The notes below the pieces were generated by a model. That model saw nothing but the letters and a program-made list of their open reading frames with translations. It was not told the DNA's origin and did no database searches. A DNA stretch of 17,750 nt from a virus, in UHGV virus genome UHGV-0162636. The stretch is one strand, 5' to 3'. This document shows, piece after piece, positions 1 to 13,952 of the stretch. The translations under genes were made by a program, and so were the position numbers. The stretch's first letter is position 1. The number at the start of each line of letters is the position of its first letter.

Positions 1-49
1 AAGGTATACTCTCATACCGACAAAAACATGGATGCATTACGGGTGAATT

Positions 50-3716: not shown

Positions 3717-4534
3717 ACGTACTTATCCTGTTTGCGTGCCCACTCGGGGCGTTTGATAATTTCAAATCCACCCCATTCGCCAGACTCACGGCACTGGTGG
3801 TAGGTATTCAGATCCCGGCGGAACAGTGCATGCCCGGCGTCAACGTCCTGTGCATCCAGTTCGAAAACGCGCACCGGGTAGCGGCCGCAGTCGATGGTTT
3901 CGCTCACTGCCAGGAAAAAGAATCCGTGCGGCTCACCGGTGGTCTGCTGCGCGCCTTCGCGGTACATGGCGTCCTGAACGTGGTACCGGAATTCCTCGAT
4001 GTGGCGGGAGAACCGCTCCATGTCCGCAACCTTCTTTACGTCCAGCAGAACCGGATGATTCTTCAGGCGCTTATCCGGGCGAATGCGGCACAGCTCTCCG
4101 GTTTCCGAATCCGTCCAGTAGTGCGACGCTTCGCAGAAACCTTCCGCCTCAAGAAGCCAGCGCGCCGCCGGATGGGCCATCGCGCTGTCACGCATAAGAT
4201 TCAGCTTGCGGCCCTGTTCGGCATCCATAACCGTCATGCCCATGTTCTCGACATCTTTCAGGAACGCTGCTTCATCCTCTTTTCCGGCTGCTGTGCGGCG
4301 GTTGAACTGCGGCGCCACGATGAAACGCTTATCGAACTCTTCCGGCTCCAGCAGCAGGCAGTGCAGGGCGGTGCCCATATCCAGCGCTTTCAGCTTTTCG
4401 GTGTCGACCGGCGCTGATTTCTGCCATTGCAGCAGGGCCGGGCTCAACGCAACCATATCCAGCTGCGACTTACTCACGCCGTCTCCGGAGTGGTAATCCT
4501 CGTTGCTGATGTCGAAGTAAATTCCTGGCTTCAT
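3713..4534 (-). CDS. PD-(D/E)XK exonuclease (RecE/exonuclease VIII-like partner of RecT)
   Basis: 273-aa ORF beginning MKPGIYFDISNEDYHSGDGVSKSQL; contains RPD...LLDVKK consistent with a PD-(D/E)XK nuclease motif. Sits directly upstream of and coupled to recT. Confidence 0.8.
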   Translation of the reverse strand: MKPGIYFDISNEDYHSGDGVSKSQLDMVALSPALLQWQKSAPVDTEKLKALDMGTALHCLLLEPEEFDKRFIVAPQFNRRTAAGKEDEAAFLKDVENMGMTVMDAEQGRKLNLMRDSAMAHPAARWLLEAEGFCEASHYWTDSETGELCRIRPDKRLKNHPVLLDVKKVADMERFSRHIEEFRYHVQDAMYREGAQQTTGEPHGFFFLAVSETIDCGRYPVRVFELDAQDVDAGHALFRRDLNTYHQCRESGEWGGFEIIKRPEWARKQDKYV

Positions 4535-4830
4535 GCCGCGTTCCTCGCCGTGTCCAACTGGTCAGCCAGATCCCACTTCGCGATGATGCTGGTCAGCGCG
4601 CTCTGGAATGCAGCGAGAGTTTCTTCAAATTCCGGATTCATCATTAGCTCTTCCAGAATCTCCTTGCGCACGCCTTTGCGCTCCAGCGCATAGAAAGGTT
4701 CCTGCAGCTGGTGATGCTTAATGGCGTCGATCAGCTCTACCTGGCGCTCGTAGTGCAACTGGCTCAGCTGGTAGTCGCTGTCGATGCTGGTCATGATGCT
4801 TTTTAGGTTATTGATCTGCTGGATGTTCAC
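4531..4830 (-). CDS. Hypothetical early protein (99 aa, GTG start)
   Basis: ORF with GGGGGTGAG upstream of the GTG start; stop overlaps the exonuclease start (ATGA). Acidic, helical-looking sequence with no recognisable motif. Its position in a recombination module is compatible with a host-nuclease inhibitor or Kil-type function, but that is speculative. Confidence 0.6.
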   Translation of the reverse strand: MNIQQINNLKSIMTSIDSDYQLSQLHYERQVELIDAIKHHQLQEPFYALERKGVRKEILEELMMNPEFEETLAAFQSALTSIIAKWDLADQLDTARNAA

Positions 4831-4976
4831 TTGCTCACCCCCATATCCATTTCAGTTTTGACTGCCATCTTGGTGACAAACGCCCAGTTGATGGCCTCAT
4901 GCAGAGTGCGGCACTTAGTGCTCATCAGCCCGCACGCCGTAACGCAGTACCAACCGTTGATGATTTTCCACTGCAT
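4827..4976 (-). CDS. Small hypothetical protein (49 aa), first gene of the early-left operon; not in the ORF track
   Basis: Hand translation: MQWKIINGWYCVTACGLMSTKCRTLHEAINWAFVTKMAVKTEMDMGVSK. GAGGT lies 8-9 nt upstream of the ATG at 4976; the TGA stop overlaps the GTG start of the next gene. Confidence 0.35.
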   Translation of the reverse strand: MQWKIINGWYCVTACGLMSTKCRTLHEAINWAFVTKMAVKTEMDMGVSK

Positions 4977-4982
4977 AATTCG

Positions 4983-5008
4983 TTACCTCAGTGTTACCGT
5001 TGAGGTAA
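4983..5008. promoter_or_regulatory. Inverted repeat TTACCTCA-N10-TGAGGTAA overlapping a candidate leftward early promoter (operator-like)
   Basis: 8-bp arms at 4983-4990 and 5001-5008 share the TTACC/GGTAA half-site with the window-wide palindrome. A minus-strand TTGACT (-35, 5031-5036) and weak -10 lie just upstream in transcript terms. Confidence 0.45.
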
Positions 5009-5055
5009 TAATTATCCTTATGTGGTTTGAAGTCAATAGGTATGATTATAAAAAA

Positions 5056-5070
5056 TTACCTGTAAGGTAA
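5056..5070. promoter_or_regulatory. 15-bp palindrome TTACCTGTAAGGTAA (candidate operator, copy A)
   Basis: Perfect TTACCT-N3-AGGTAA. Located between the repressor-gene terminator and the leftward promoter. Confidence 0.55.
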
Positions 5071-5080
5071 CGCTTCTGGC

Positions 5081-5107
5081 AATAAAAAAGCCGCTCAATG
5101 GCGGCTT
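5081..5107 (-). terminator. Rho-independent terminator downstream of the repressor gene
   Basis: On the minus strand: 7-bp GC-rich stem (5088-5094 pairing with 5101-5107), 6-nt loop, followed by a TTTTATT run. Confidence 0.5.
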
Positions 5108-5127
5108 AGTATCTGAAATATATGGTT

Positions 5128-5718
5128 TTAATCTTGCGCTTTACCGTTCTGAACAATCACAAAATCGACGTAGCTCTCAATCTTGCTTTTCTCGCTCTCA
5201 GGTAACAATGCGTAGCGGGCCCGGTCGTAATGGATGGTCGCCGGGTCGCGGGGATGGATGAGCAACTCATAGCCGCGGCGCCCGAACGCGCCAGCGATCG
5301 CCTCCAGGGTGGAGATAGAAACGCTAACCTCATTGTTCAGCATGCGCTGGATTGTCGCCTGGGCAACGCCGGACGCTTTAGACACCTTTCCCTGAGACGA
5401 CAGGTCGCGGTTATTCTGCATCCACGCTTCGAGATTATGCGCCGCCAGCTGGCCGATATCGGAAGGGGTGATCTCCTCCTGCGGTATGGCAACAGCAGAT
5501 AATGAGTGGTCTACGTCCAGCCAGTTCGACGGCTTGTTCGCCGCCTTCTCAATCTTGCGCGCCACCGTGTCGCCGATAACCTTCTGCCCGCGGGCCCAGC
5601 GGTTCACCAGGTTGGCCTGAGTTCCCAGTTTTTCCGCCAGACGAGTCTGCACCCCGTTAAAGTCACGGTCGATGATATCGTTAATATTCTGCCTGCGGAT
5701 ATCCTGAATACTTTTCAT
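5128..5718 (-). CDS. Prophage repressor (CI-like) with two tandem XRE-type HTH domains and no LexA-like S24 peptidase domain
   Basis: 196-aa ORF. HTH-like segments GVQTRLAEKLGTQANLVNRWARGQ and KASGVAQATIQRMLNNEVSVSISTLEAIAGAF. No Ala-Gly/Ser-Lys autocleavage domain visible. Divergent from the Cro-like gene. Confidence 0.8.
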   Translation of the reverse strand: MKSIQDIRRQNINDIIDRDFNGVQTRLAEKLGTQANLVNRWARGQKVIGDTVARKIEKAANKPSNWLDVDHSLSAVAIPQEEITPSDIGQLAAHNLEAWMQNNRDLSSQGKVSKASGVAQATIQRMLNNEVSVSISTLEAIAGAFGRRGYELLIHPRDPATIHYDRARYALLPESEKSKIESYVDFVIVQNGKAQD

Positions 5719-5773
5719 GCTCTGGTGATTCGCCTCATATATGAATTAGTTAGTGGTTCAATTAAAAGCGAAT

Positions 5774-5788
5774 TTACCTCACAGGTAA
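5774..5788. promoter_or_regulatory. 15-bp palindrome TTACCTCACAGGTAA (candidate operator, copy B1) in the repressor/cro intergenic region
   Basis: Perfect TTACCT-N3-AGGTAA in the divergent promoter region; an additional GGTAA half-site follows at 5801-5805. Confidence 0.6.
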
Positions 5789-5821
5789 ATGCACCCGACA
5801 GGTAACAAACCTTGATTATTA

Positions 5822-5837
5822 TTACCTTCTGGGTGAA
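5822..5837. promoter_or_regulatory. Degenerate operator-like site TTACCTTCTGGGTGAA inside a candidate rightward promoter
   Basis: Lies between a TTGATT -35-like hexamer (5812-5817) and a weak -10 upstream of the Cro-like gene. One arm deviates (GGTGA instead of GGTAA). Confidence 0.4.
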
Positions 5838-5872
5838 TATTTGTTATCTGAAATTAATATCAGGCAATAGCT

Positions 5873-6103
5873 ATGAGCGAGAACGAAAAATTCGACTTCA
5901 AAAAACACTGGTTGCAACTCACTCCTGATGAGCGAAATGCCTTTGCTGACGAGGCAGGAACTACCAGCCATTACATCCAGACGCATCTGACAGGTCGCCG
6001 GAAAATGCCAGGTAAGACATTGATGAATGGGCTGTTTAAGGCATGCAAACAGCGCGGATGGGTCAGAACAAAGCCGGAACTGGCCATCTTCTTCTACGAA
6101 TAA
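5873..6103 (+). CDS. Cro-like small HTH regulator (YdaS/Cro family)
   Basis: 76-aa ORF divergent from the repressor; HTH-like LTPDERNAFADEAGTTSHYIQTHLTGRRKMPGKTL. Confidence 0.7.
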   Translation: MSENEKFDFKKHWLQLTPDERNAFADEAGTTSHYIQTHLTGRRKMPGKTLMNGLFKACKQRGWVRTKPELAIFFYE

Positions 6104-6124
6104 AACCTCCCTCTAAACCCCATC

Positions 6125-6147
6125 AGGCCGCCTTCTGGCGGTCTTTT
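6125..6147 (+). terminator. Hairpin plus short T-run after the Cro-like gene (tR1-like position)
   Basis: AGGCCGCC-ttct-GGCGGTC followed by TTTT. Short T tract, so probably a weak or conditional terminator. Confidence 0.4.
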
Positions 6148-6252
6148 CATATCTATTCAGTTCTCTCAGGTAATAATGATCCGAATATGGTTGATCTTTT
6201 TTCGGCCATCGCACAAAATTACCGTAATAGTAAACGTCAATGAGGTTGCGTA

Positions 6253-6462
6253 ATGGAGATTATCACTCGTCTGGACGCTGCAAAGGCAGGTCTTAAGCGT
6301 TATTACACCGGTAAAAAGTGCAAACACGGTCATGACAGTGAGCGTTACGTCTATAACGGCCATTGCGTTGAGTGCGCCATCAACTCAAGTCTGCGCCGCC
6401 AGGCGGAGATTAAACGGATTATGGATGAAGCTGCGAAAGGCAACGTGCCGGAGGTGATCTGA
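6253..6462 (+). CDS. Small zinc-ribbon-like protein in the cII position
   Basis: 69-aa ORF with CKHGH...NGHCVEC (four Cys/His ligand candidates). GAGG Shine-Dalgarno upstream; stop overlaps the start of the O-like gene. Confidence 0.55.
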   Translation: MEIITRLDAAKAGLKRYYTGKKCKHGHDSERYVYNGHCVECAINSSLRRQAEIKRIMDEAAKGNVPEVI

Positions 6463-7232
6463 TGGCCAGCAGCTGGATTAAGGTCGAGGTGATCACCCCT
6501 GATAAGCCTGAAATATTTCAGATAGCCGAGCTACTGAATATCGACCCGGATGCCGTTCTCGGGAAGCTGGTTCGCATCTGGGCATGGGCCGATCAGCAGA
6601 CAATAGACGGTAACGCTGGCAGCGTTACAAAGGGAGTACTGGACAGACTCGCTTTTATTACCGGATTCGCTGATGCATTGATCGCTGTTGGCTGGCTCGC
6701 ATATGTCGACGAAAAGCTGGTACTGCCTAACTTTGAGCGTCACAACGGTGAATCATCGAAAAAACGGGCACTTACAAACAGAAGAGTCGCAGAACACCGC
6801 AAACGTGAAACGCAAAATGTAACGCGAGCAGCGTTACAAAAAGAGTTACCAGAGGAAGAGGAAGATATAAATAAAACCCCTCTCTCTGCGCGCGAAGGAA
6901 TTCAAATCCCTCCCGTTGTCGTTCCAGGTATCGGGGAACCGATCGGCAAATTCACCATGCATGAAAACTGGCAGCCGTCAGATGACTTCGTCATGCGCGC
7001 CAGGATGTGGGGTCATGCACTTCCTGCAGACGGGTACAAGAAATCAGACCTGATTGAATTCATCACCTACTGGATGGCGGAAGGCAATGTGATGCAACAC
7101 GTGCAGTGGGAGCAGAAGTTTGCCCGGCTGCTGATGAACAGGAGAAAAAGAGCGGCAGGAAAGCGCGGTGACAGCTCTGACGATGACGTACCACACTGGA
7201 ACAGCCCTGAGGGCTGGAAGGATTTCTTATGA
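6462..7232 (+). CDS. Phage replication initiation protein (O-like, possibly with DnaT-like C-terminal domain)
   Basis: 256-aa ORF immediately upstream of and coupled to the P homolog. Contains an internal acidic linker (PEEEEDI) and two dyad-symmetric repeats in its coding sequence. Domain assignment is by position and weak recall. Confidence 0.6.
   Translation: MASSWIKVEVITPDKPEIFQIAELLNIDPDAVLGKLVRIWAWADQQTIDGNAGSVTKGVLDRLAFITGFADALIAVGWLAYVDEKLVLPNFERHNGESSKKRALTNRRVAEHRKRETQNVTRAALQKELPEEEEDINKTPLSAREGIQIPPVVVPGIGEPIGKFTMHENWQPSDDFVMRARMWGHALPADGYKKSDLIEFITYWMAEGNVMQHVQWEQKFARLLMNRRKRAAGKRGDSSDDDVPHWNSPEGWKDFL
6610..6628. repeat. Dyad-symmetric repeat GTAACGCTGGCAGCGTTAC (copy 1), candidate iteron or protein-binding site
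   Basis: 7-bp inverted arms GTAACGC/GCGTTAC around a 5-bp spacer, followed by AAAGGGAG. Repeated 209 bp downstream with 23/27 identity. Confidence 0.5.
6819..6837. repeat. Dyad-symmetric repeat GTAACGCGAGCAGCGTTAC (copy 2)
   Basis: Same arms as copy 1; followed by AAAAAGAG and an A/G-rich stretch. Confidence 0.5.
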
Positions 7233-8014
7233 ATAACGTATTCGCAGCAATTCAGAATCGTGATGCTGGTGCCATGGCTCGCATGATGGGCCCGGACAAT
7301 CACCATGATCAGCAGGACAACGTTGTTAACATCAGCGCAGAGCGTCTCGTCGATGCCCTGTTTAAACAGCTTAAGCAACTCTTTCCTGCAGCTGAGCAGA
7401 CCAACCTGAAGACCGCGCAGCAGGAAACCGACGCGAAGCGCCAGTGGATAGCCGCATTCGCTGAAGGTGGGATCCGTACCCGCGAGCAGGTATCGGCAGG
7501 TATGCGTCATGCCCGCGCCAGTGAATCACCGTTCTGGCCTTCGCCCGGGCAGTTCATCAAGTGGTGCAAGGACAGCAAAATGGTGCTTGGCGTGAGCATC
7601 GAGGACGTGATGGGGGAGTTTCACCGTTACGCCAAAGAGAAAAGCTTACAGCCCGGAGGACCTGAGAGATTCCCGTGGCGCCACCCGGTCATGTACTGGA
7701 TTGTATGCGATACCCGCCGTGCGATGTACCAGCGCCAGCTGAGTGAGGTGGAAGTTGAGAGGCATGCGCGCAAACTGCTTGAGGAATGGGCTACGAAAGT
7801 GGCGGCCGGTCACCAGATTCCGGATCCGGTTCTCAGCATCCAGGCGAAGCCAGAGCCGATACAAACACCGGATGACACAGGGGGGAGTGCTTACCACCCT
7901 CCCGGAAAAAGCTTCGGATGCATGCCGAATTCCGCCACCCTTGGAGGGCTGACACCGGCCCAGTGGTTGATGGAGGAATACCGGCGAGGGAAGGCAGCGG
8001 GACTCATCAGGTAG
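7229..8014 (+). CDS. P: Replication protein P homolog (DnaB helicase loader, lambda P family)
   Basis: 261-aa ORF. LFPAAEQTN...KRQWIAAFAEGGIRTREQVSAGMRHARASESPFWPSPGQFIKWCKD aligns by eye with lambda P (FPASLANRDQ...RRQWVLAFRENGITTMEQVNAGMRVARRQNRPFLPSPGQFVAWCRE), recalled from memory. Confidence 0.85.
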   Translation: MNNVFAAIQNRDAGAMARMMGPDNHHDQQDNVVNISAERLVDALFKQLKQLFPAAEQTNLKTAQQETDAKRQWIAAFAEGGIRTREQVSAGMRHARASESPFWPSPGQFIKWCKDSKMVLGVSIEDVMGEFHRYAKEKSLQPGGPERFPWRHPVMYWIVCDTRRAMYQRQLSEVEVERHARKLLEEWATKVAAGHQIPDPVLSIQAKPEPIQTPDDTGGSAYHPPGKSFGCMPNSATLGGLTPAQWLMEEYRRGKAAGLIR

Positions 8015-8051
8015 CACCAGCGCGGCAGCGCATTTTTTTACGCCTGTATAA

Positions 8052-8066
8052 TTACCTTGCTGGTAA
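8052..8066. promoter_or_regulatory. Variant palindrome TTACC-TTGCT-GGTAA (copy C1)
   Basis: Same 5-bp half-sites at the same centre-to-centre spacing as the perfect copies, but the inner base pair differs. Confidence 0.4.
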
Positions 8067-8113
8067 CAAAATATGCGCATAGCTATTTATTTTAACTCTA
8101 ATGTGGATTTAAA

Positions 8114-8128
8114 TTACCTGAGAGGTAA
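8114..8128. promoter_or_regulatory. 15-bp palindrome TTACCTGAGAGGTAA (copy C2) overlapping the ribosome-binding site of the 8132 gene
   Basis: Perfect TTACCT-N3-AGGTAA ending 3 nt before the ATG at 8132; the GAGGT inside it is the likely Shine-Dalgarno. Confidence 0.55.
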
Positions 8129-8131
8129 GCC

Positions 8132-8923
8132 ATGACAGCAATATTAGGGATTGACCCGGGATGCAGCGGGGCGCTGGTTCTCGTAACTGAGCAGGGCGGA
8201 TACATCGACCATCTGGCAATGCCAACCATCAAGGTCGGCACAAAGTCCAGGGTGAACGGCGCAGCGGTAGCTGCATGGGTTCGGCAGTACGGAATCACTC
8301 ATGCGTACCTAGAGCAGGTCGGAGCCATGCCAGGACAGGGAACGGCAAGCATGTTCACGTTCGGGCATGCAGCTGGCGTACCGGCGCTTAAATTCCTCGC
8401 TTCATACATAGCAGGCACGACATTGGCTGGGATGTTTGCAAACCAGATGAACAGCCTATTGACCGGCAATGACCCACTGGATATGACAAAGCCAACTACA
8501 TGGGTGCAGGCTCTGCTGAAGGGCGGCTCATTCGGTATCTACGGCGATTTCCTTTTCCAGGACCATACGCAATATGGATCCAGTATCGCGGCCACCATCG
8601 GGGGGCCGGTGCTGAGCTTCGCCGAGCAGTTAACCAAACTTCTGATCACGAACCCGCAGAAGGCATTGCAGGGCGAAGAAACTTCTTTCGGTGCCGATGC
8701 GCTGAAGACGGCGCGCATGATCACCCCATTCGCCAACCTCTGGTACGCGAAAGCCATTACCAACCACCTGATACTCCAGCAACTTCAGGAGATGGCTAAC
8801 CCAGGGTATAACGACAGGGTGCGTGACAGAGCGCAGCGTGAATTCAACACGACGAGCTGGTGGGAGCCTGGCGAGACAACGCCTCGCCGCGCACCAGACC
8901 TCGGGAAGGCAGTGGGGCAATAA
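8132..8923 (+). CDS. Chimeric ORF: RuvC-like Holliday-junction resolvase N-terminus (about 85 aa) fused to an unrelated C-terminal segment, possibly a virion or DNA-injection protein fragment
   Basis: N-terminus MTAILGIDPGCSGALVLV matches the RuvC-type ILGIDPG motif. After about residue 85 the sequence no longer resembles a resolvase. A complete resolvase would be about 160 aa. Confidence 0.5.
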   Translation: MTAILGIDPGCSGALVLVTEQGGYIDHLAMPTIKVGTKSRVNGAAVAAWVRQYGITHAYLEQVGAMPGQGTASMFTFGHAAGVPALKFLASYIAGTTLAGMFANQMNSLLTGNDPLDMTKPTTWVQALLKGGSFGIYGDFLFQDHTQYGSSIAATIGGPVLSFAEQLTKLLITNPQKALQGEETSFGADALKTARMITPFANLWYAKAITNHLILQQLQEMANPGYNDRVRDRAQREFNTTSWWEPGETTPRRAPDLGKAVGQ

Positions 8924-9114
8924 TGGATATATTGATCAAGATAGGCATGATTCTGTTCTGGTTTGCGTTCTTCGTGGTATGCGGCACGGCGTATGTTTGG
9001 GCGGTAATATTCGCTATCAGAAAAGGTTGGCTTGGCGAGACCTCTGCGAAGGTCGTTTACTTCGCGACCTTCGTCATTCTCGCGGCTATAGTGTTTAAGC
9101 TACCATTACTGTGA
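8923..9114 (+). CDS. Small hydrophobic membrane protein (63 aa, two predicted TM segments)
   Basis: Internal ATG at 8923 overlaps the TAA of the upstream ORF. Sequence MDILIKIGMILFWFAFFVVCGTAYVWAVIFAIRKGWLGE...FATFVILAAIVFKL is strongly hydrophobic. Confidence 0.5.
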   Translation: MDILIKIGMILFWFAFFVVCGTAYVWAVIFAIRKGWLGETSAKVVYFATFVILAAIVFKLPLL

Positions 9115-9123
9115 CATGTCACA

Positions 9124-9146
9124 AGGCCGCTATGCGGCCTTTTTTT
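9124..9146 (+). terminator. Rho-independent terminator (probably works for both convergent genes)
   Basis: AGGCCGC-tat-GCGGCCT stem-loop followed by TTTTTT. The T-run overlaps the stop codon of the minus-strand gene. Confidence 0.6.
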
Positions 9147-9405
9147 AAGTCGTTTCCTGCTTCAGTTTTTCCACACAGTAATCGAGATGCATCTGCAGAT
9201 CCTTCATGGACATCTGCGAGCTGGTGACGTAGTTCACCAAGGCAGTTAGTTCCGCCATCGGGCCATCAACGTTAAATCCGTCCTCATTCAGTTGTCGCAG
9301 CAACGTCATCAGATGTGATTCTTCTACAAGGGAGCGGACGCCTCCCGGCGTGTGTATGCGTTCGGCAAATCCTTTTTCCAGCGGGTGATGATACTGACGT
9401 TGCAT
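9145..9405 (-). CDS. Small SOS-regulated protein (86 aa), candidate antirepressor or moron of unknown function
   Basis: ATG at 9405 with GGAGAA Shine-Dalgarno; the track's TTG start at 9423 is less likely. A near-consensus LexA box lies 20-39 bp upstream. No motif recognised in the protein. Confidence 0.55.
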   Translation of the reverse strand: MQRQYHHPLEKGFAERIHTPGGVRSLVEESHLMTLLRQLNEDGFNVDGPMAELTALVNYVTSSQMSMKDLQMHLDYCVEKLKQETT

Positions 9406-9424
9406 CTCATGTTCTCCATGCAAT

Positions 9425-9444
9425 TACTGTATGTATGTACAGTA
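9425..9444. promoter_or_regulatory. LexA (SOS) box TACTGTATGTATGTACAGTA
   Basis: CTGT-N8-ACAG with an AT-rich spacer, matching the enterobacterial SOS-box consensus TACTGTATATATATACAGTA at 18 of 20 positions. Immediately upstream of the 9145..9405 gene. Confidence 0.65.
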
Positions 9445-9481
9445 GCAAAACTTTGAAACACTATCCAGCACGATATGAGCT

Positions 9482-9496
9482 TTACCTGAAAGGTAA
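9482..9496. promoter_or_regulatory. 15-bp palindrome TTACCTGAAAGGTAA (copy D) between the SOS-regulated gene and the tailspike gene
   Basis: Perfect TTACCT-N3-AGGTAA; a further AGGTAATAA half-site at 9541-9549. A TATAAG -10-like hexamer lies about 30 bp downstream on the plus strand. Confidence 0.55.
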
Positions 9497-9600
9497 TAAC
9501 TTTCATGATTGTTATTCATTCAATTCATATAAGGTTTGCTAGGTAATAAACTGTCCAGATGATGCATGCGCGCCGGGCGCTGCTTTATTGGAGACAGGCC

Positions 9601-12351
9601 ATGACGGTATCAACCGTAGTTGACCATAACGATTACACCGGGAACGGCGTTACGACATCATTCCCTTACACCTTCCGAATTTTCAAGAAAGCAGACCTTA
9701 CCGTTTCAGTGATTGACCTGAGCGAAAACATCACGGTACTGGTGCTGGATACTGACTACACCGTGACGAACGCTGGTGGCTTTAACGGCGGAAGTGTTGT
9801 TCTTACCTCGCCGCTGGCGAACGGTTGGCAAATATCGATTGCCCGCGAGCTGGAGGCAACGCAGGAAACAGACCTGCGCAATCAGGGTAAGTTTTTCGCT
9901 GAGGTGCATGAAGATGCATTCGATAAACTGACGATGCTGATTCAGCAGGTGGGCAGTTTGTTCAGCCTGGCATTGCGTAAACCGTCGTTTGTGGCAAATT
10001 ATTACGATGCCATGAGTAACTATATTAGAAATCTGCGAGATCCGGTAAGGCCACAGGATGCAGCAACTAAAAATTATGCTGATTCATTAAGCGAAGGAAA
10101 TACTTCACATACAGATTTGTTATTCAGCAGAACGCTTCGTACGGAAGAAAGCATCCCACAATTACCATCTATTGAGTTACGAAAAAATAAAATTGTTGGT
10201 ATGGATTCATCTGGTAATCCGATTATGCTTCTTCCGGAAAGCGGAAGCGCAGCGGATGTCCTCATTGAATTAGCAAGCACTGATGATGGGAAGGGGGATT
10301 CCTTAATTGGCGTAAAACAGCCTTATGCTGGAGCGGTAGGGCGTACGCAGCATGATTTTAACGCGCAGTTTATCAGTATTAAAGACTTCTTAGGCGATGA
10401 ATATTCCGGCGCAACGGACGCCTCACCGGCATTCTCTACCGCAAACGCCCTAGTGCCAAAGGGCAAGCAAATTCTCGTTCCTGCTGGAAACTACATGCTC
10501 AATACCGAAGTGGACTGCTACGGCCGCCACTTCATTTTTGAAGAGCCAGTAACGATAACAGGAACCGGATATCTTCGCCGTGCTGTTGTTCAGCGTATTG
10601 ATGGTGGTTCCGGGGCTGTAAGTATTGGAACTGAAGGCGTTCGCGGTTCGGATGGGCACCCGCAATTTGGTGTTAACTTCAGGTTTGGGAGCAATGCTGG
10701 CAATGTATCCGGTCTACAGGTTGGTGGCGGAAACCCAATTAATGGAACTTATGGTAATGTTTTCTTTCCGGATGGCTATTCGTCATGGACTTCAGTACAA
10801 CCAAGTAAATACCCAAGCCCGACAGAGATCGCAGTCCAGCCAGCTTCTCGCGCGGGTAAATGCACAACTGTTGCCGGAACTAATATCGTAAATGTAAATA
10901 CAGGACCAGGCTTAACGGTTGATGAAATTGGAAAAACAATATGGATCAGGGATGCTGGGTATACGGTGGTATCAGTGGCATCAGGATCATTTACAGTGAA
11001 AAACATCGATAACAGCGCGGTGTCATTTCCGTCATCAATATCTGCAACCTATGTATGCTGTTACATTTGGGGGCAGGGTAAATGCAATGTATCGGGGAAG
11101 AAAATTATTCGTATATCTGGCGACCCATTTATTCCGCTCAACAATATACAAACTACGTTCGTAGTGAATGGCATTACGACTGTACAGGCATCATATTCTG
11201 ATTCTTGGTTAGCCACACTTACCGCGGATGTAGGTATTGCTGATAATGTCGACTATTATTGGTGGGGTAGTGTAGATAACTTAGTTACTGCATTGCGTAT
11301 GCATCGTGTTACCGGAGCTGGATTTGAAGAAAATATTTCTCTTATTGCTTCTGCTCGGGGATTTTATCACCTACACGCAGCTGGTGGTAACGGTGACCAG
11401 TATCCAGTATTTATTGGTAGTGGGTGGGATCCGGACGGCAATGCACGACGACAGATCACTGTTGATGGTGTAAATGGCATAGTCACTATAGGGGGGGCAT
11501 ACGGGCGAGCATGTGCAGAGTTCGGTTATCGCACATACTCTTCTGGAGACGTGAATAGATTTCGTTTTGATAGTGCCACTACTGGTGATCAACCTGCTTT
11601 TAGCGCTGTCGGCCCTGATGCGAATATAAATACTATTCTGGCCGCGAAAGGTAATGGGTTTATTCAAATAAATAATGAACTACATTTTAATGCCGCTATT
11701 TACCCGCATGTAGATAATATGTTTACCGTTGGTAAATCTGGAAATCGCCCTTCATCTATTTGGGCTGCAAATGGAACAATTCAAACATCTGATGGAACTT
11801 TAAAAACTGATGTGGCTGAAAGCAACTTATCGATAGAGTTTATTAAAGGGCTGCATCCGGTATCATATCGTTTCATCAGTGGGGGGAATGTTGTTGAAGA
11901 AATTGATGACGGATTTGAATATATAGAACGGCAGGTCACTGAGATTATCCATAGTACAGAAGAGATTAACGAGCGAATTAATGTTGATGGTGTAATCAAA
12001 TTTGTAAGAAAATATGTTACAAAAGAAGTTGAGCACCCGGTATTTGATACTGTTAACGTTGAAGACGAAAACGGTAGTTTCCTTGAGACGGTCAGCATTC
12101 CTCGCATGGAAACTGTAAGGGTACCAAAGAAAAAAACGGTTATCACTTCGGTTGCCGGTAAGCGTACCCATTACGGCTTTATCGCTCAGGAAGTTAAAGC
12201 CCTACTTGATCAACTCGGCACTGGCGACTTTGGTGGATATGTAGAGGGTGAAGATGGGGAGATTGGTTTACGTTATGAACAATTCATAGCACCAATTGTA
12301 TCAGCGATGCAAGATGTAATAAAAAGAATTGAAAAATTGGAAGGCAATTAA
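9601..12351 (+). CDS. Tailspike/tail fibre protein: conserved N-terminal anchor, central beta-helix depolymerase-like domain, C-terminal intramolecular chaperone (peptidase S74-like) domain
   Basis: ATG at 9601 with GGAGACAGG Shine-Dalgarno (the track's start at 9559 is less likely). N-terminus TVSTVVDHNDYTGNGVTTSFPYTF...DAATKNYADS is tail-fibre-anchor-like. Centre has DDGKGDSLIGVKQP...FISIKDFLGDEYSGATDASPAF, resembling pectate-lyase-fold tailspikes. C-terminus SDGTLKTDV...HYGFIAQEVKALL...IEKLEG is typical of auto-cleaving chaperone domains. Confidence 0.8.
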   Translation: MTVSTVVDHNDYTGNGVTTSFPYTFRIFKKADLTVSVIDLSENITVLVLDTDYTVTNAGGFNGGSVVLTSPLANGWQISIARELEATQETDLRNQGKFFAEVHEDAFDKLTMLIQQVGSLFSLALRKPSFVANYYDAMSNYIRNLRDPVRPQDAATKNYADSLSEGNTSHTDLLFSRTLRTEESIPQLPSIELRKNKIVGMDSSGNPIMLLPESGSAADVLIELASTDDGKGDSLIGVKQPYAGAVGRTQHDFNAQFISIKDFLGDEYSGATDASPAFSTANALVPKGKQILVPAGNYMLNTEVDCYGRHFIFEEPVTITGTGYLRRAVVQRIDGGSGAVSIGTEGVRGSDGHPQFGVNFRFGSNAGNVSGLQVGGGNPINGTYGNVFFPDGYSSWTSVQPSKYPSPTEIAVQPASRAGKCTTVAGTNIVNVNTGPGLTVDEIGKTIWIRDAGYTVVSVASGSFTVKNIDNSAVSFPSSISATYVCCYIWGQGKCNVSGKKIIRISGDPFIPLNNIQTTFVVNGITTVQASYSDSWLATLTADVGIADNVDYYWWGSVDNLVTALRMHRVTGAGFEENISLIASARGFYHLHAAGGNGDQYPVFIGSGWDPDGNARRQITVDGVNGIVTIGGAYGRACAEFGYRTYSSGDVNRFRFDSATTGDQPAFSAVGPDANINTILAAKGNGFIQINNELHFNAAIYPHVDNMFTVGKSGNRPSSIWAANGTIQTSDGTLKTDVAESNLSIEFIKGLHPVSYRFISGGNVVEEIDDGFEYIERQVTEIIHSTEEINERINVDGVIKFVRKYVTKEVEHPVFDTVNVEDENGSFLETVSIPRMETVRVPKKKTVITSVAGKRTHYGFIAQEVKALLDQLGTGDFGGYVEGEDGEIGLRYEQFIAPIVSAMQDVIKRIEKLEGN

Positions 12352-12358
12352 GTAGATT

Positions 12359-12391
12359 GGTGGGGCTTACGCCCCACCTTTTTATTTTTTT
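12359..12391 (+). terminator. Rho-independent terminator after the tailspike gene
   Basis: GGTGGGGC-ttac-GCCCCACC stem-loop followed by TTTTTATTTTTTT. Confidence 0.7.
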
Positions 12392-13500
12392 AATTCTGAT
12401 AATTGTTTTTCGATTTTTGAAACTCTTTCATCAAGTTTTAGTAGGTCATTTAATTTCTTGCCATTAATGTAAACATCCCCATTAATGTAAACGCCGCCAT
12501 CGTTGTCGACTGCAAGAACTTCTTTAGTATTATCATTTGAGACTATACGAGTTCCACCTTCGCCGTTTCTTATTGAAATCCAGTTGCGCTTATCTTCTGA
12601 ACCGTTCCAGCGAGTGCCTCCATATATTTCTCCCGACTTTCCTTCATTCAAGATAATACCGGTACCAACACCTTCTGTGCGTGCCTGCATTATCCCTTCG
12701 CGGAATAGAGATCGCCTAAAGTCAAAACCCATCTTGGCTTTATCAAAATCAGCAACAATGAGCCTGCCATAATCAGCTATAGAATTCTTGAAGTAAATCC
12801 CACTTTCCCAGACACCGCGACGCTTCTCTGCTGGTACATCTTTATCTGTATCTTCGCTTCGCACTTCTACGGCCATGGAGTTTGGATTTCCAAAGCCAAC
12901 TATCTGTAAGCCCACTTTGGACTTATTGGGGAATACTCCGGGCTTGCCGCCATTAAGGACATCAATCTCAACCCCTACGAGTTGGTTATCATAGTCTTCT
13001 GGATTGAATGTGAAATCTGAACCAGCCGGTGCCAGATCATGATATTTCCCATCCTTTGTAAAGGCCTTGAAATATGAACGAGCGCTAAAGAATGCCCCCC
13101 ACGCCTTTGAGTCTTTAGCAATGGCAGCAGAATCACCCCAGATGGAGACAGCGTTGGTGTTTGGTTTAAAATTCCATACTTCACTCAGGAAGTTTTGATA
13201 GTGATTGTGAACGCTATCATAATTATCGGCATTCTGATTTGTTAAATCATGGGCTTTTACTGGCTCACCTTTCCAGTTGTAGAACTGTGAATTAGGTTCA
13301 ATGACATCAGTGAGAATTTCATGACCGCGCAGGGCTGTATCAAGACCTTCGTATTGAGTCCAAATGCCATTTGCTCTTGGGTGATTACCTCTTACAGTAA
13401 CCTCATTTAATTTTTCATTGCCATTATCATCTTGTGAATATCCCGGCCCTGATATAAAAAGGCAACTTAATCCAAAAACAAAAAAAGAATTAACTTTCAT
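12382..13500 (-). CDS. Secreted protein of unknown function with Sec-type signal peptide (AT-rich cargo gene)
   Basis: 372-aa ORF. N-terminus MKVNSFFVFGLSCLFISGPGYSQ has the n/h/c-region architecture of a signal peptide. C-terminus has GGVYINGDVYINGKKL and a coiled-coil-like tail. GAGGAA Shine-Dalgarno. GC content well below the flanking phage genes. Confidence 0.7.
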   Translation of the reverse strand: MKVNSFFVFGLSCLFISGPGYSQDDNGNEKLNEVTVRGNHPRANGIWTQYEGLDTALRGHEILTDVIEPNSQFYNWKGEPVKAHDLTNQNADNYDSVHNHYQNFLSEVWNFKPNTNAVSIWGDSAAIAKDSKAWGAFFSARSYFKAFTKDGKYHDLAPAGSDFTFNPEDYDNQLVGVEIDVLNGGKPGVFPNKSKVGLQIVGFGNPNSMAVEVRSEDTDKDVPAEKRRGVWESGIYFKNSIADYGRLIVADFDKAKMGFDFRRSLFREGIMQARTEGVGTGIILNEGKSGEIYGGTRWNGSEDKRNWISIRNGEGGTRIVSNDNTKEVLAVDNDGGVYINGDVYINGKKLNDLLKLDERVSKIEKQLSELKK

Positions 13501-13501
13501 C

Positions 13502-13741
13502 TTACAAATTCCTCACTATTATTACATTTACATTTTGTAGCAGGATGGTATGTTGCCAAATTTTTTGGTTGTTATAATTATCATCACATCTTTCAGTGTC
13601 TGAAATAAAACATTCGTGTTCGTTTTTATATTTATTCCACGCTTTTTGCTCCATTTGATTATCGATTGCGGAAAGAGCAAGAACTGCAAACAGCGCTATT
13701 GCAAAAGAGAGGGATATGTATTTGATAATTTTGCCAATCAT
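13502..13741 (-). CDS. Small membrane-anchored or secreted Cys-containing protein (79 aa), co-oriented with the secreted protein
   Basis: Hydrophobic segment ISLSFAIALFAVLALSAI followed by a polar region with three Cys (ECFISDTERC). No clear Shine-Dalgarno; AT-rich. Confidence 0.35.
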   Translation of the reverse strand: MIGKIIKYISLSFAIALFAVLALSAIDNQMEQKAWNKYKNEHECFISDTERCDDNYNNQKIWQHTILLQNVNVIIVRNL

Positions 13742-13952
13742 GATGGTTTTCTTTTGATATCACCAGGTGGCACGATTCTGCCATGACAAATGACAAAAAA
13801 CCAGTTGGTAGCTTACACCACTGGCATGTCTGATTGTGATTATGAAGCTGCTGTATTTTTACTGATGGTAACAATTAACCACATATGGTTTATTGTGTAT
13901 GATGGACTCACCAACTAAGGGGGTTCTATATGCACAATAAACGGTGGTCACT

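Follow-up and report, generated by a model that had tools for sequence, protein, structure and literature searches.

Dispersed palindromes in a defective epsilon15-like prophage of Escherichia coli as very probable operators of the repressor Rep

The virus genome UHGV-0162636, a stretch of 17,750 nucleotides referred to here as the window, is a defective epsilon15-like (Uetakevirus) prophage of E. coli, in which a 15-bp palindrome, TTACCT-N3-AGGTAA, recurs between genes. Very probably, Rep, the master repressor of the prophage, uses these palindromes as its operators. The initial annotation had described them as a candidate operator network not limited to the immunity region. The palindromes do recur as described and the mechanism proposed for them is right, but the system is already known, as judged from GenBank features and secondary descriptions. 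Indeed, the epsilon15 record AY150271.2 carries seven features labelled 'protein_bind, repressor, lysogeny' with the sequence ATTACC-N5-GGTAAT, and four of the seven are orthologous to window sites (4994, 5056, 8052 and 9482). The palindrome, which had not been recognised as the operator of any well-studied phage, is thus the operator of the epsilon15/SPC32H type. Since the orthologous sites annotated in epsilon15 include those upstream of the RuvC and tailspike genes, and since these are syntenic in relatives, the extension of the network beyond the immunity region is borne out.

Four copies of TTACCT-N3-AGGTAA have no mismatch (5056-5070, 5774-5788, 8114-8128 and 9482-9496), at exactly the coordinates given initially, and 200 dinucleotide-preserving shuffles of the sequence yielded no match at all. 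When up to two mismatches are allowed, seven sites are found against 0.32 expected, so the motif does exceed chance as claimed; the additional ones, at 4994-5008, 5822-5836 and 8052-8066, had been named as variants and hold as such, whereas the left end (4983-4997) of a longer variant drawn at 4983-5008 has three mismatches. The ten-base core TTACC-N5-GGTAA is the better description of the sites than TTACCT-N3-AGGTAA, with six perfect copies in the window against 0.01 expected. The half-site AGGTAATAA occurs five times (0.07 expected), at 5003, 5819 on the minus strand, 6168, 9491 and 9541; the half-sites originally listed at 5003, 6168 and 9541 are all present, but that at 9541 belongs to another conserved, promoter-like element. 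All copies had been said to be intergenic, and this is true of the full sites in the window without exception and of all eight perfect sites in the intact sister prophage of strain EP91B, only 8% of which is intergenic (P ~2e-9).

The dyad was followed by whole-genome scans of epsilon15, phiV10, SPC32H, BUCT554 and the intact EP91B prophage, and by alignments of four intergenic regions from five genomes. It stands at the same slots in the genomes scanned: upstream of int (with one mismatch), in the left operator region OL (two or three sites), in the right operator region OR (two or three), weakly after the cro terminator, upstream of RuvC/DUF1064 (two), upstream of terS (two), upstream of the portal operon and in the gap between ant and the tailspike gene; a further dyad upstream of the lysis cassette is found in some of them only. 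The int-upstream site reads TTACCTGAAAGGTAT in EP91B, 43-57 bp upstream of int, and is kept in epsilon15, phiV10, SPC32H and BUCT554; the window starts inside it. The aligned sites are identical in both half-sites and differ in the five bases between them and in the flanks. Among 77 distinct IMG/VR loci with a Rep relative, 363 perfect sites were counted, and in an unbiased search for 5+5 palindromes in the loci of three more distant Rep homologues taken from public assemblies (54-61% identical, two of them from Serratia and Raoultella), TTACC-N5 was the top recurrent palindrome.

The protein encoded at 5128..5718 had been proposed as the likely binder, and the evidence agrees: it matches the Rep protein of SPC32H (PDB 5D50) over its full length with E = 3e-48, and the motif travels with Rep homologues across hosts. 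The protein is 46% identical to epsilon15 gp38 and ~47% identical to SPC32H Rep. Within this divergence, the stretch N36-L-V-N-R-W41 is invariant in five phage Reps that are otherwise 46-96% identical, and NL[VI][NS]RW is the sole variation across ~100 database Rep homologues down to 54% identity. This stretch is a candidate recognition helix, and its near-invariance fits the invariant half-site. Homologues with an altered helix were sought as a source of covariation and none was found; the three fetched loci (54-61%) also keep TTACC. The Pfam matches of Rep, HTH_3 and YdaS-like, are all helix-turn-helix (HTH) families, with no S24 (LexA-type peptidase) domain among them. SPC32H Rep has three domains, of which the N-terminal one binds DNA, the middle one mediates dimerisation and the C-terminal one, which is p53-like, mediates tetramerisation (PMC9986798). 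Given this architecture, the tandem HTH seen by Pfam, which had been taken as such at first, is better read as one DNA-binding HTH followed by an HTH-like dimerisation module, as only the N-terminal domain contacts DNA in SPC32H Rep (PMC9986798). On palindromic DNA, SPC32H Rep is a tetramer whose DNA-binding pairs come from different dimers, and Ant, an antirepressor that is itself tetrameric, breaks it up into dimers (PMC9638917).

We propose the following mechanism. A Rep tetramer would read each TTACC/GGTAA half-site through its N-terminal HTH domain and, on sites that overlap or flank promoters, would silence every lytic transcription unit directly. Through 4994 and 5056 it would act on the leftward early operon, through the OR sites 5774, 5791 and 5822 on the rightward early operon, through 8052 and 8114 on the unit that starts with RuvC, and through 9482 on the tailspike gene; intact relatives would add terS, the portal operon and int to its targets, and some of them the lysis cassette as well. 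Induction would follow the SPC32H scheme, in which DNA damage takes LexA off the box at 9425-9444, Ant is made and the Rep tetramer is disassembled. As far as can be read from the DNA, the window has all parts of such a Rep-Ant-LexA switch. Its Ant homologue belongs to PHROG 450, with a weak match to the antirepressor family PHROG 1760, and its gene, divergent from the tailspike gene, sits at the position of SPC32H ant. Kim and Ryu reportedly showed in 2013 that LexA represses ant in SPC32H and that Ant inactivates a Rep that is not cleavable.

The placement of the sites relative to the promoters is consistent with direct repression. The promoters are assigned from sequence, PL (the leftward early promoter) by promoter scan. 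Three sites, those at PL, upstream of gp40 and upstream of RuvC, share one geometry: 17 bp separate the -35 and -10 hexamers, and the operator begins on the final T of the -10. At the sites upstream of int, terS, the portal operon and the tailspike gene, the right half followed by TAA forms a -10-like hexamer (TAATAA; TATACT at int). PL and the RuvC promoter each have a second operator exactly 62 bp upstream, beyond the -35 hexamer (4994/5056 and 8052/8114). This spacing, counted from start to start, is kept among relatives: of 286 distances from one perfect site to the next in the 77 loci, 140 measure exactly 62 bp, and there is no gap of 61 or 63 bp among those listed. As 62 bp is ~5.9 helical turns, the spacing suggests one oligomer touching both sites, and the pairs suggest that a single Rep tetramer may bridge them. 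The outer OR sites, 48 bp apart, are a caveat to this pairing. Taken further, one Rep tetramer might clamp each early promoter through a 62-bp pair, with one operator at the -10 and one upstream of the -35, as a tight DNA micro-loop, and a remnant that carries rep could confer on its host immunity to the epsilon15-like genus as a whole; we hold this combined reading only tentatively and consider it rather doubtful. Immunity of that breadth could follow because the half-sites and the recognition helix are invariant in all known Rep homologues, even between Reps that are only 46% identical.

Several observations weigh against Rep as the reader of all these sites, or against the way it is thought to act on them. 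The OL sites in Serratia are 74 and 105 bp apart, so the 62-bp spacing is not universal. No convincing sigma-70 promoter overlapping the 9482 site was found by the promoter scan or by our own reading of the sequence, and control of the tailspike gene by Rep is therefore something we infer. The 'repressor' features of the epsilon15 record may be predictions and not footprints, and the structural mechanism of Rep repression 'has not been extensively characterized' (PMC9986798). Finally, the HTH of the Cro-like protein (5873..6103) is conserved as strongly as that of Rep, and covariation therefore cannot tell which of the two is the reader. This last point leads to an alternative that we regard as unlikely, namely that the palindromes are read mainly or solely by the Cro-like protein instead of Rep, with the dispersed sites serving lytic-phase control. 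The protein is annotated as a transcriptional repressor in PHROG, it is 76-80% identical across the genus, and its HTH motif AGTTSHYIQTH is conserved genus-wide, in step with the invariant half-sites. In lambda-type switches, moreover, Cro and CI use common operators. However, the epsilon15 record names the repressor as the binder, a location upstream of structural genes best suits a lysogeny repressor, and the Cro-like protein has no similarity to the N-terminal domain of Rep that could be detected when it was looked for; SPC32H Rep itself has been reported on palindromic sites (PMC9638917). The two readings are not mutually exclusive at OR, where the Cro-like protein is a possible second binder that shares the sites with Rep.

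That the palindrome is a conserved enterobacterial host-factor site recruited by the phage is hardly credible, even though the same motif is found in prophages of E. coli, Salmonella, Enterobacter, Serratia and Raoultella and sites of the host protein IHF are annotated beside several copies in epsilon15. A control of 77 kb of EP91B DNA from elsewhere in the genome, which includes an unrelated lambdoid prophage, has no perfect site (P ~1e-7 at prophage density), against eight in the 38.8 kb of the epsilon15-like prophage itself, and on this density the host-factor hypothesis is rejected; a ubiquitous host site, the outcome that would have undone the operator reading, is not what was found. The motif is also always accompanied by a Rep gene, and we know of no E. 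coli regulator with this consensus. NarL/NarP 7-2-7 and CpxR boxes were considered and rejected, as they differ in half-site spacing and orientation. It is likewise very unlikely that the resemblance between sites comes from overlapping ordinary signals, such as the -10-like TAATAA and the Shine-Dalgarno AGGT/GAGG, with no protein site behind it. Such signals are present: GGTAATAA includes a -10-like hexamer, GAGGTAA is a ribosome-binding site at 8122-8128 and 4983-4991, and the orphan AGGTAATAA at 9541 is part of another motif. But they apply to the orphan half-sites only and leave the full 15-bp dyads, the invariant left halves, the 140 exact 62-bp pairs and the enrichment statistics unexplained. 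Operators of Rep remain the reading that we prefer, and the features on which it draws are collected in the table.

Table. Predicted operators, promoters and genes of the window, with the repressor sites of epsilon15 (AY150271.2). Window sites and their epsilon15 counterparts are paired by intergenic alignment; a dot marks features without strand.
Feature	Window position	Strand	epsilon15 position	Remark
Int-upstream site, right half AAGGTATAC	1..9	.		One-mismatch site, cut by the window edge
Extra half-site TTACCTCAG	4983..4991	-		Minus strand reads CTGAGGTAA, Shine-Dalgarno of gp37-like open reading frame 4827-4976
Promoter-proximal OL operator TTACCGTTGAGGTAA	4994..5008	.	32554-32570, annotated	Abuts -10 of the leftward early promoter; in epsilon15 between gp37 and 3' end of repressor gene
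PL	-35 TTGACT 5036-5031; -10 AATTAT 5013-5008	leftward		Promoter scan
Distal OL operator	5056..5070	.	32616-32632, annotated	Perfect; 62 bp from 4994; upstream of PL -35; in epsilon15 between gp37 and 3' end of repressor gene
Further OL site			32479-32494, annotated	Between gp37 and 3' end of repressor gene
Rep, master repressor, 196 aa	5128..5718	-		SPC32H Rep homologue
OR operator closest to rep	5774..5788	.	33341-33355, present, unannotated	Perfect
Weak middle OR site GCACCCGACAGGTAA	5791..5805	.	33358, present, unannotated	Three mismatches
PR (rightward early promoter)	-35 TTGATT 5812-5817; -10 GAATAT 5835-5840			Predicted; operator 5822 in spacer, overlapping -10
OR operator in spacer and -10 of PR	5822..5836	.	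33388, present, unannotated	Kept in 5/5 relatives
Cro-like small regulator (gp39 homologue)	5873..6103	+		PHROG 35 'transcriptional repressor', E = 2.7e-10
gp40-upstream promoter-like element	-35 TTGATC 6191-6196; -10 CAAAAT 6214-6219			Predicted
One-mismatch site TTACCGTAATAGTAA	6219..6233	.		Abuts promoter-like element upstream of gp40 and replication genes
Distal operator of RuvC-upstream pair	8052..8066	.	35906-35922, annotated	In epsilon15 before RuvC
RuvC-upstream promoter	-35 TTTATT 8086-8091; -10 TTAAAT 8109-8114			Predicted
Proximal RuvC-upstream operator	8114..8128	.	35969-35983, present, unannotated	Perfect; 15-mer identical in epsilon15 (TTACCTGAGAGGTAA); abuts -10 TTAAAT; covers ribosome-binding site of 8132 gene
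Chimeric open reading frame	8132..8923	+		In-frame fusion of RuvC residues 1-83 with the C-terminal 181 residues of virion protein gp17
Ant, small antirepressor homologue	9145..9405	-		76% identical to epsilon15 gp19; position of SPC32H ant
Canonical LexA box TACTGTATGTATGTACAGTA	9425..9444	.		Over ant promoter region; kept in five relatives
Single operator, ant/tailspike gap	9482..9496	.	19895-19911, annotated	Perfect; in epsilon15 between gp19/ant and tailspike gene
Promoter-like element CATATAAGGTTT-N6-TAATAA	9526..9549	+		Upstream of tailspike gene; contains the 9541 'half-site'
Tailspike gene	9601..12351	+		Downstream of 9482 site, its putative target; start from EP91B annotation; N-terminal homology to epsilon15 tailspike region
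Repressor site before terS			12-27, annotated
Repressor site before gp3 and portal			2931-2947, annotated

Some of the weaker sites can be placed more precisely. The half-site at 4983, once counted as part of the operator, is better explained as the ribosome-binding site of open reading frame 4827-4976, which is annotated in EP91B and BUCT554; it is kept in phiV10 and BUCT554, and its spacing to the next site varies. Together with the operator at 4994-5008, the half-site at 4983-4991 forms a 28-bp extended palindrome (4982-5009) that could fold into a hairpin with a 12-pair stem. A terminator scan flagged this hairpin, yet it lies where the leftward early transcript begins, over the ribosome-binding site of open reading frame 4827-4976. 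The position that matches the weak middle OR site at 5791 is a perfect TTACC-N5-GGTAA in epsilon15 and SPC32H. The site at 6219, also found in BUCT554, EP91B and the locus L091, is a putative operator, and a degenerate partner carrying AGGTAATAA is at 6159-6176. Upstream of RuvC, the -35 hexamer is TTTATT in the window and EP91B and TTGATT or TTGAAA in BUCT554, epsilon15 and SPC32H; this G-to-T change should weaken the promoter.

The 9541 copy of the half-site leads to a second conserved motif. The element that contains it lies ~45 bp downstream of the 9482 site, and a second copy is found at 13880-13909, upstream of the lysis cassette; both the 9526 and the 13880 elements carry CATATAWGGTTT and follow the pattern yCAYATRWGGTTT with a -10-like hexamer (TAATAA or TATGAT) behind it. 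Exactly two copies of the motif are present in each of the window, EP91B, epsilon15, phiV10, SPC32H and BUCT554, always on the coding strand and a short way upstream of the tailspike gene and of the lysis cassette, and no annotation of it was found in the phage records examined. With its good -10 and poor -35, it may be a late promoter that depends on an activator. In epsilon15, a Rep dyad is located 44-47 bp upstream of both copies. The lysis-upstream dyad is at 24704-24718 in epsilon15, and one-mismatch forms of it are found in phiV10, SPC32H and BUCT554. It is absent from the window lineage (13742-13880), where the adjoining leftward module differs, and because of this absence the lysis genes of the remnant may be without direct Rep control.

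The phage had been treated as lambdoid; it is an epsilon15-like podovirus. The region 4500-10000 matches Uetakevirus phages, with BUCT554 of Enterobacter 94.5% identical over 4500-8136 and epsilon15, phiV10, TL-2011b, ZX5 and Tyrion 76-79% identical. The entire window is found in E. coli chromosomes with guaA and yfgI on either side, and this position is the reported attachment site of phiV10, epsilon15 and ZX5 (PMC9782041). From the left, it contains int (50-1300), the leftward early genes, rep, the cro-like gene, gp40 and DnaT-like and P-like replication genes, followed by the RuvC-like start, ant, the tailspike gene, two leftward genes, the lysis cassette and the host genes yfgI and yfgH. 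Compared with the intact prophage of EP91B, 22,679 bp are absent, comprising the rest of ruvC, terS, terL, the portal, capsid and tail genes, and part of gp17, into which the deletion runs. The junction is at 8378-8384, at an imperfect microhomology, GTA(G/C)CGG, and the resulting chimera is 93% identical to epsilon15 RuvC (gp43) in residues 1-83 and 99% identical to the final 181 residues of gp17 in residues 83-263. This deletion of 22.7 kb is the cause of the short distances of 2.4-3.8 kb to the RuvC-upstream and tailspike sites. Operators so far from the repressor gene had been called unusual; their dispersal holds and is the norm for the genus Uetakevirus, but the distances themselves are a product of the deletion. 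What the defective prophage retains is int, rep, ant, the tailspike gene, genes at the O-antigen-conversion position and the lysis genes. Near-identical copies are present in E. coli Z226-5 and Z226-6 (99.8% identity over 91% of the window), together with insertion sequence elements. The two leftward genes (372 and 79 aa; 12382-13741, minus strand) occupy the position of the epsilon15 serotype-conversion genes; neither has a match in Pfam or PHROG, and thus they may be a different O-antigen modification module.

As a discovery, these results carry little weight, since the motif, its binder and its dispersal are recorded for epsilon15 and structures of the repressor family have been solved. Their use is for annotation: the window can be entered as a defective epsilon15-like prophage at guaA whose operators are mapped and whose rep, ant, tailspike, O-antigen-conversion and lysis genes are intact. 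The additions are modest and consist of the OR sites and the second RuvC-upstream site, which are unannotated in epsilon15, the 62-bp pairing, the deletion and the second motif. The 62-bp pairs that flank promoters bear on repression by tetrameric Rep, the aspect described as not extensively characterised (PMC9986798).

Judged by sequence features, the palindromes belong to the epsilon15/SPC32H Rep operator set: they have the TTACC/GGTAA dyad with its 5-bp gap, they occupy the intergenic positions of epsilon15, and a Rep homologue is encoded beside OL and OR. With the epsilon15 sites (AY150271.2) they share the half-sites, the positions at OL and upstream of the RuvC and tailspike genes, and a dispersal that reaches the structural genes. 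They differ in that the window spacers are less AT-rich, that the terS and portal sites have been deleted, and that the lysis-cassette site is absent from the lineage. With the SPC32H switch (PDB 5D50, 5D4Z) the window shares a homologous Rep, an Ant gene beside the tailspike gene, a LexA box over the ant promoter and the same palindromes, whereas its Rep, presumably a tetramer and sensitive to Ant, is ~47% identical. The likeness to lambda CI consists in a tripartite OR between divergent repressor and cro-like genes, operators over PL and PR and an oligomer capable of bridging. In lambda, however, operators are found only at OL and OR, control of the late genes runs through the antiterminators N and Q, and CI is cleaved with the help of RecA, while Rep is removed by an antirepressor. 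A lambdoid CI/Cro region was rejected, because Rep has no S24 domain in Pfam and the sites lie far outside OL and OR. Repressors that act from many places are found elsewhere: P1 C1 has many 17-bp operators around the genome, and gp71 of mycobacteriophage L5 binds 'stoperators'. As in the window, one repressor acts there directly at many transcription units genome-wide; but the proteins are unrelated, the sites are asymmetric and the L5 stoperators lie within transcribed regions, in contrast to the symmetric dyads at promoters described here. Rco of the Bacillus plasmid pLS20, a TetDloop tetramer that loops between operators 75 bp apart, resembles Rep in its N-terminal HTH, its C-terminal p53-like tetramerisation domain, its partner anti-repressor and its paired operators tens of bp apart at promoters (PMC9986798). 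The Rco operators are direct repeats and need several tetramers, whereas in the window a single Rep tetramer would loop over the 62 bp between symmetric sites.

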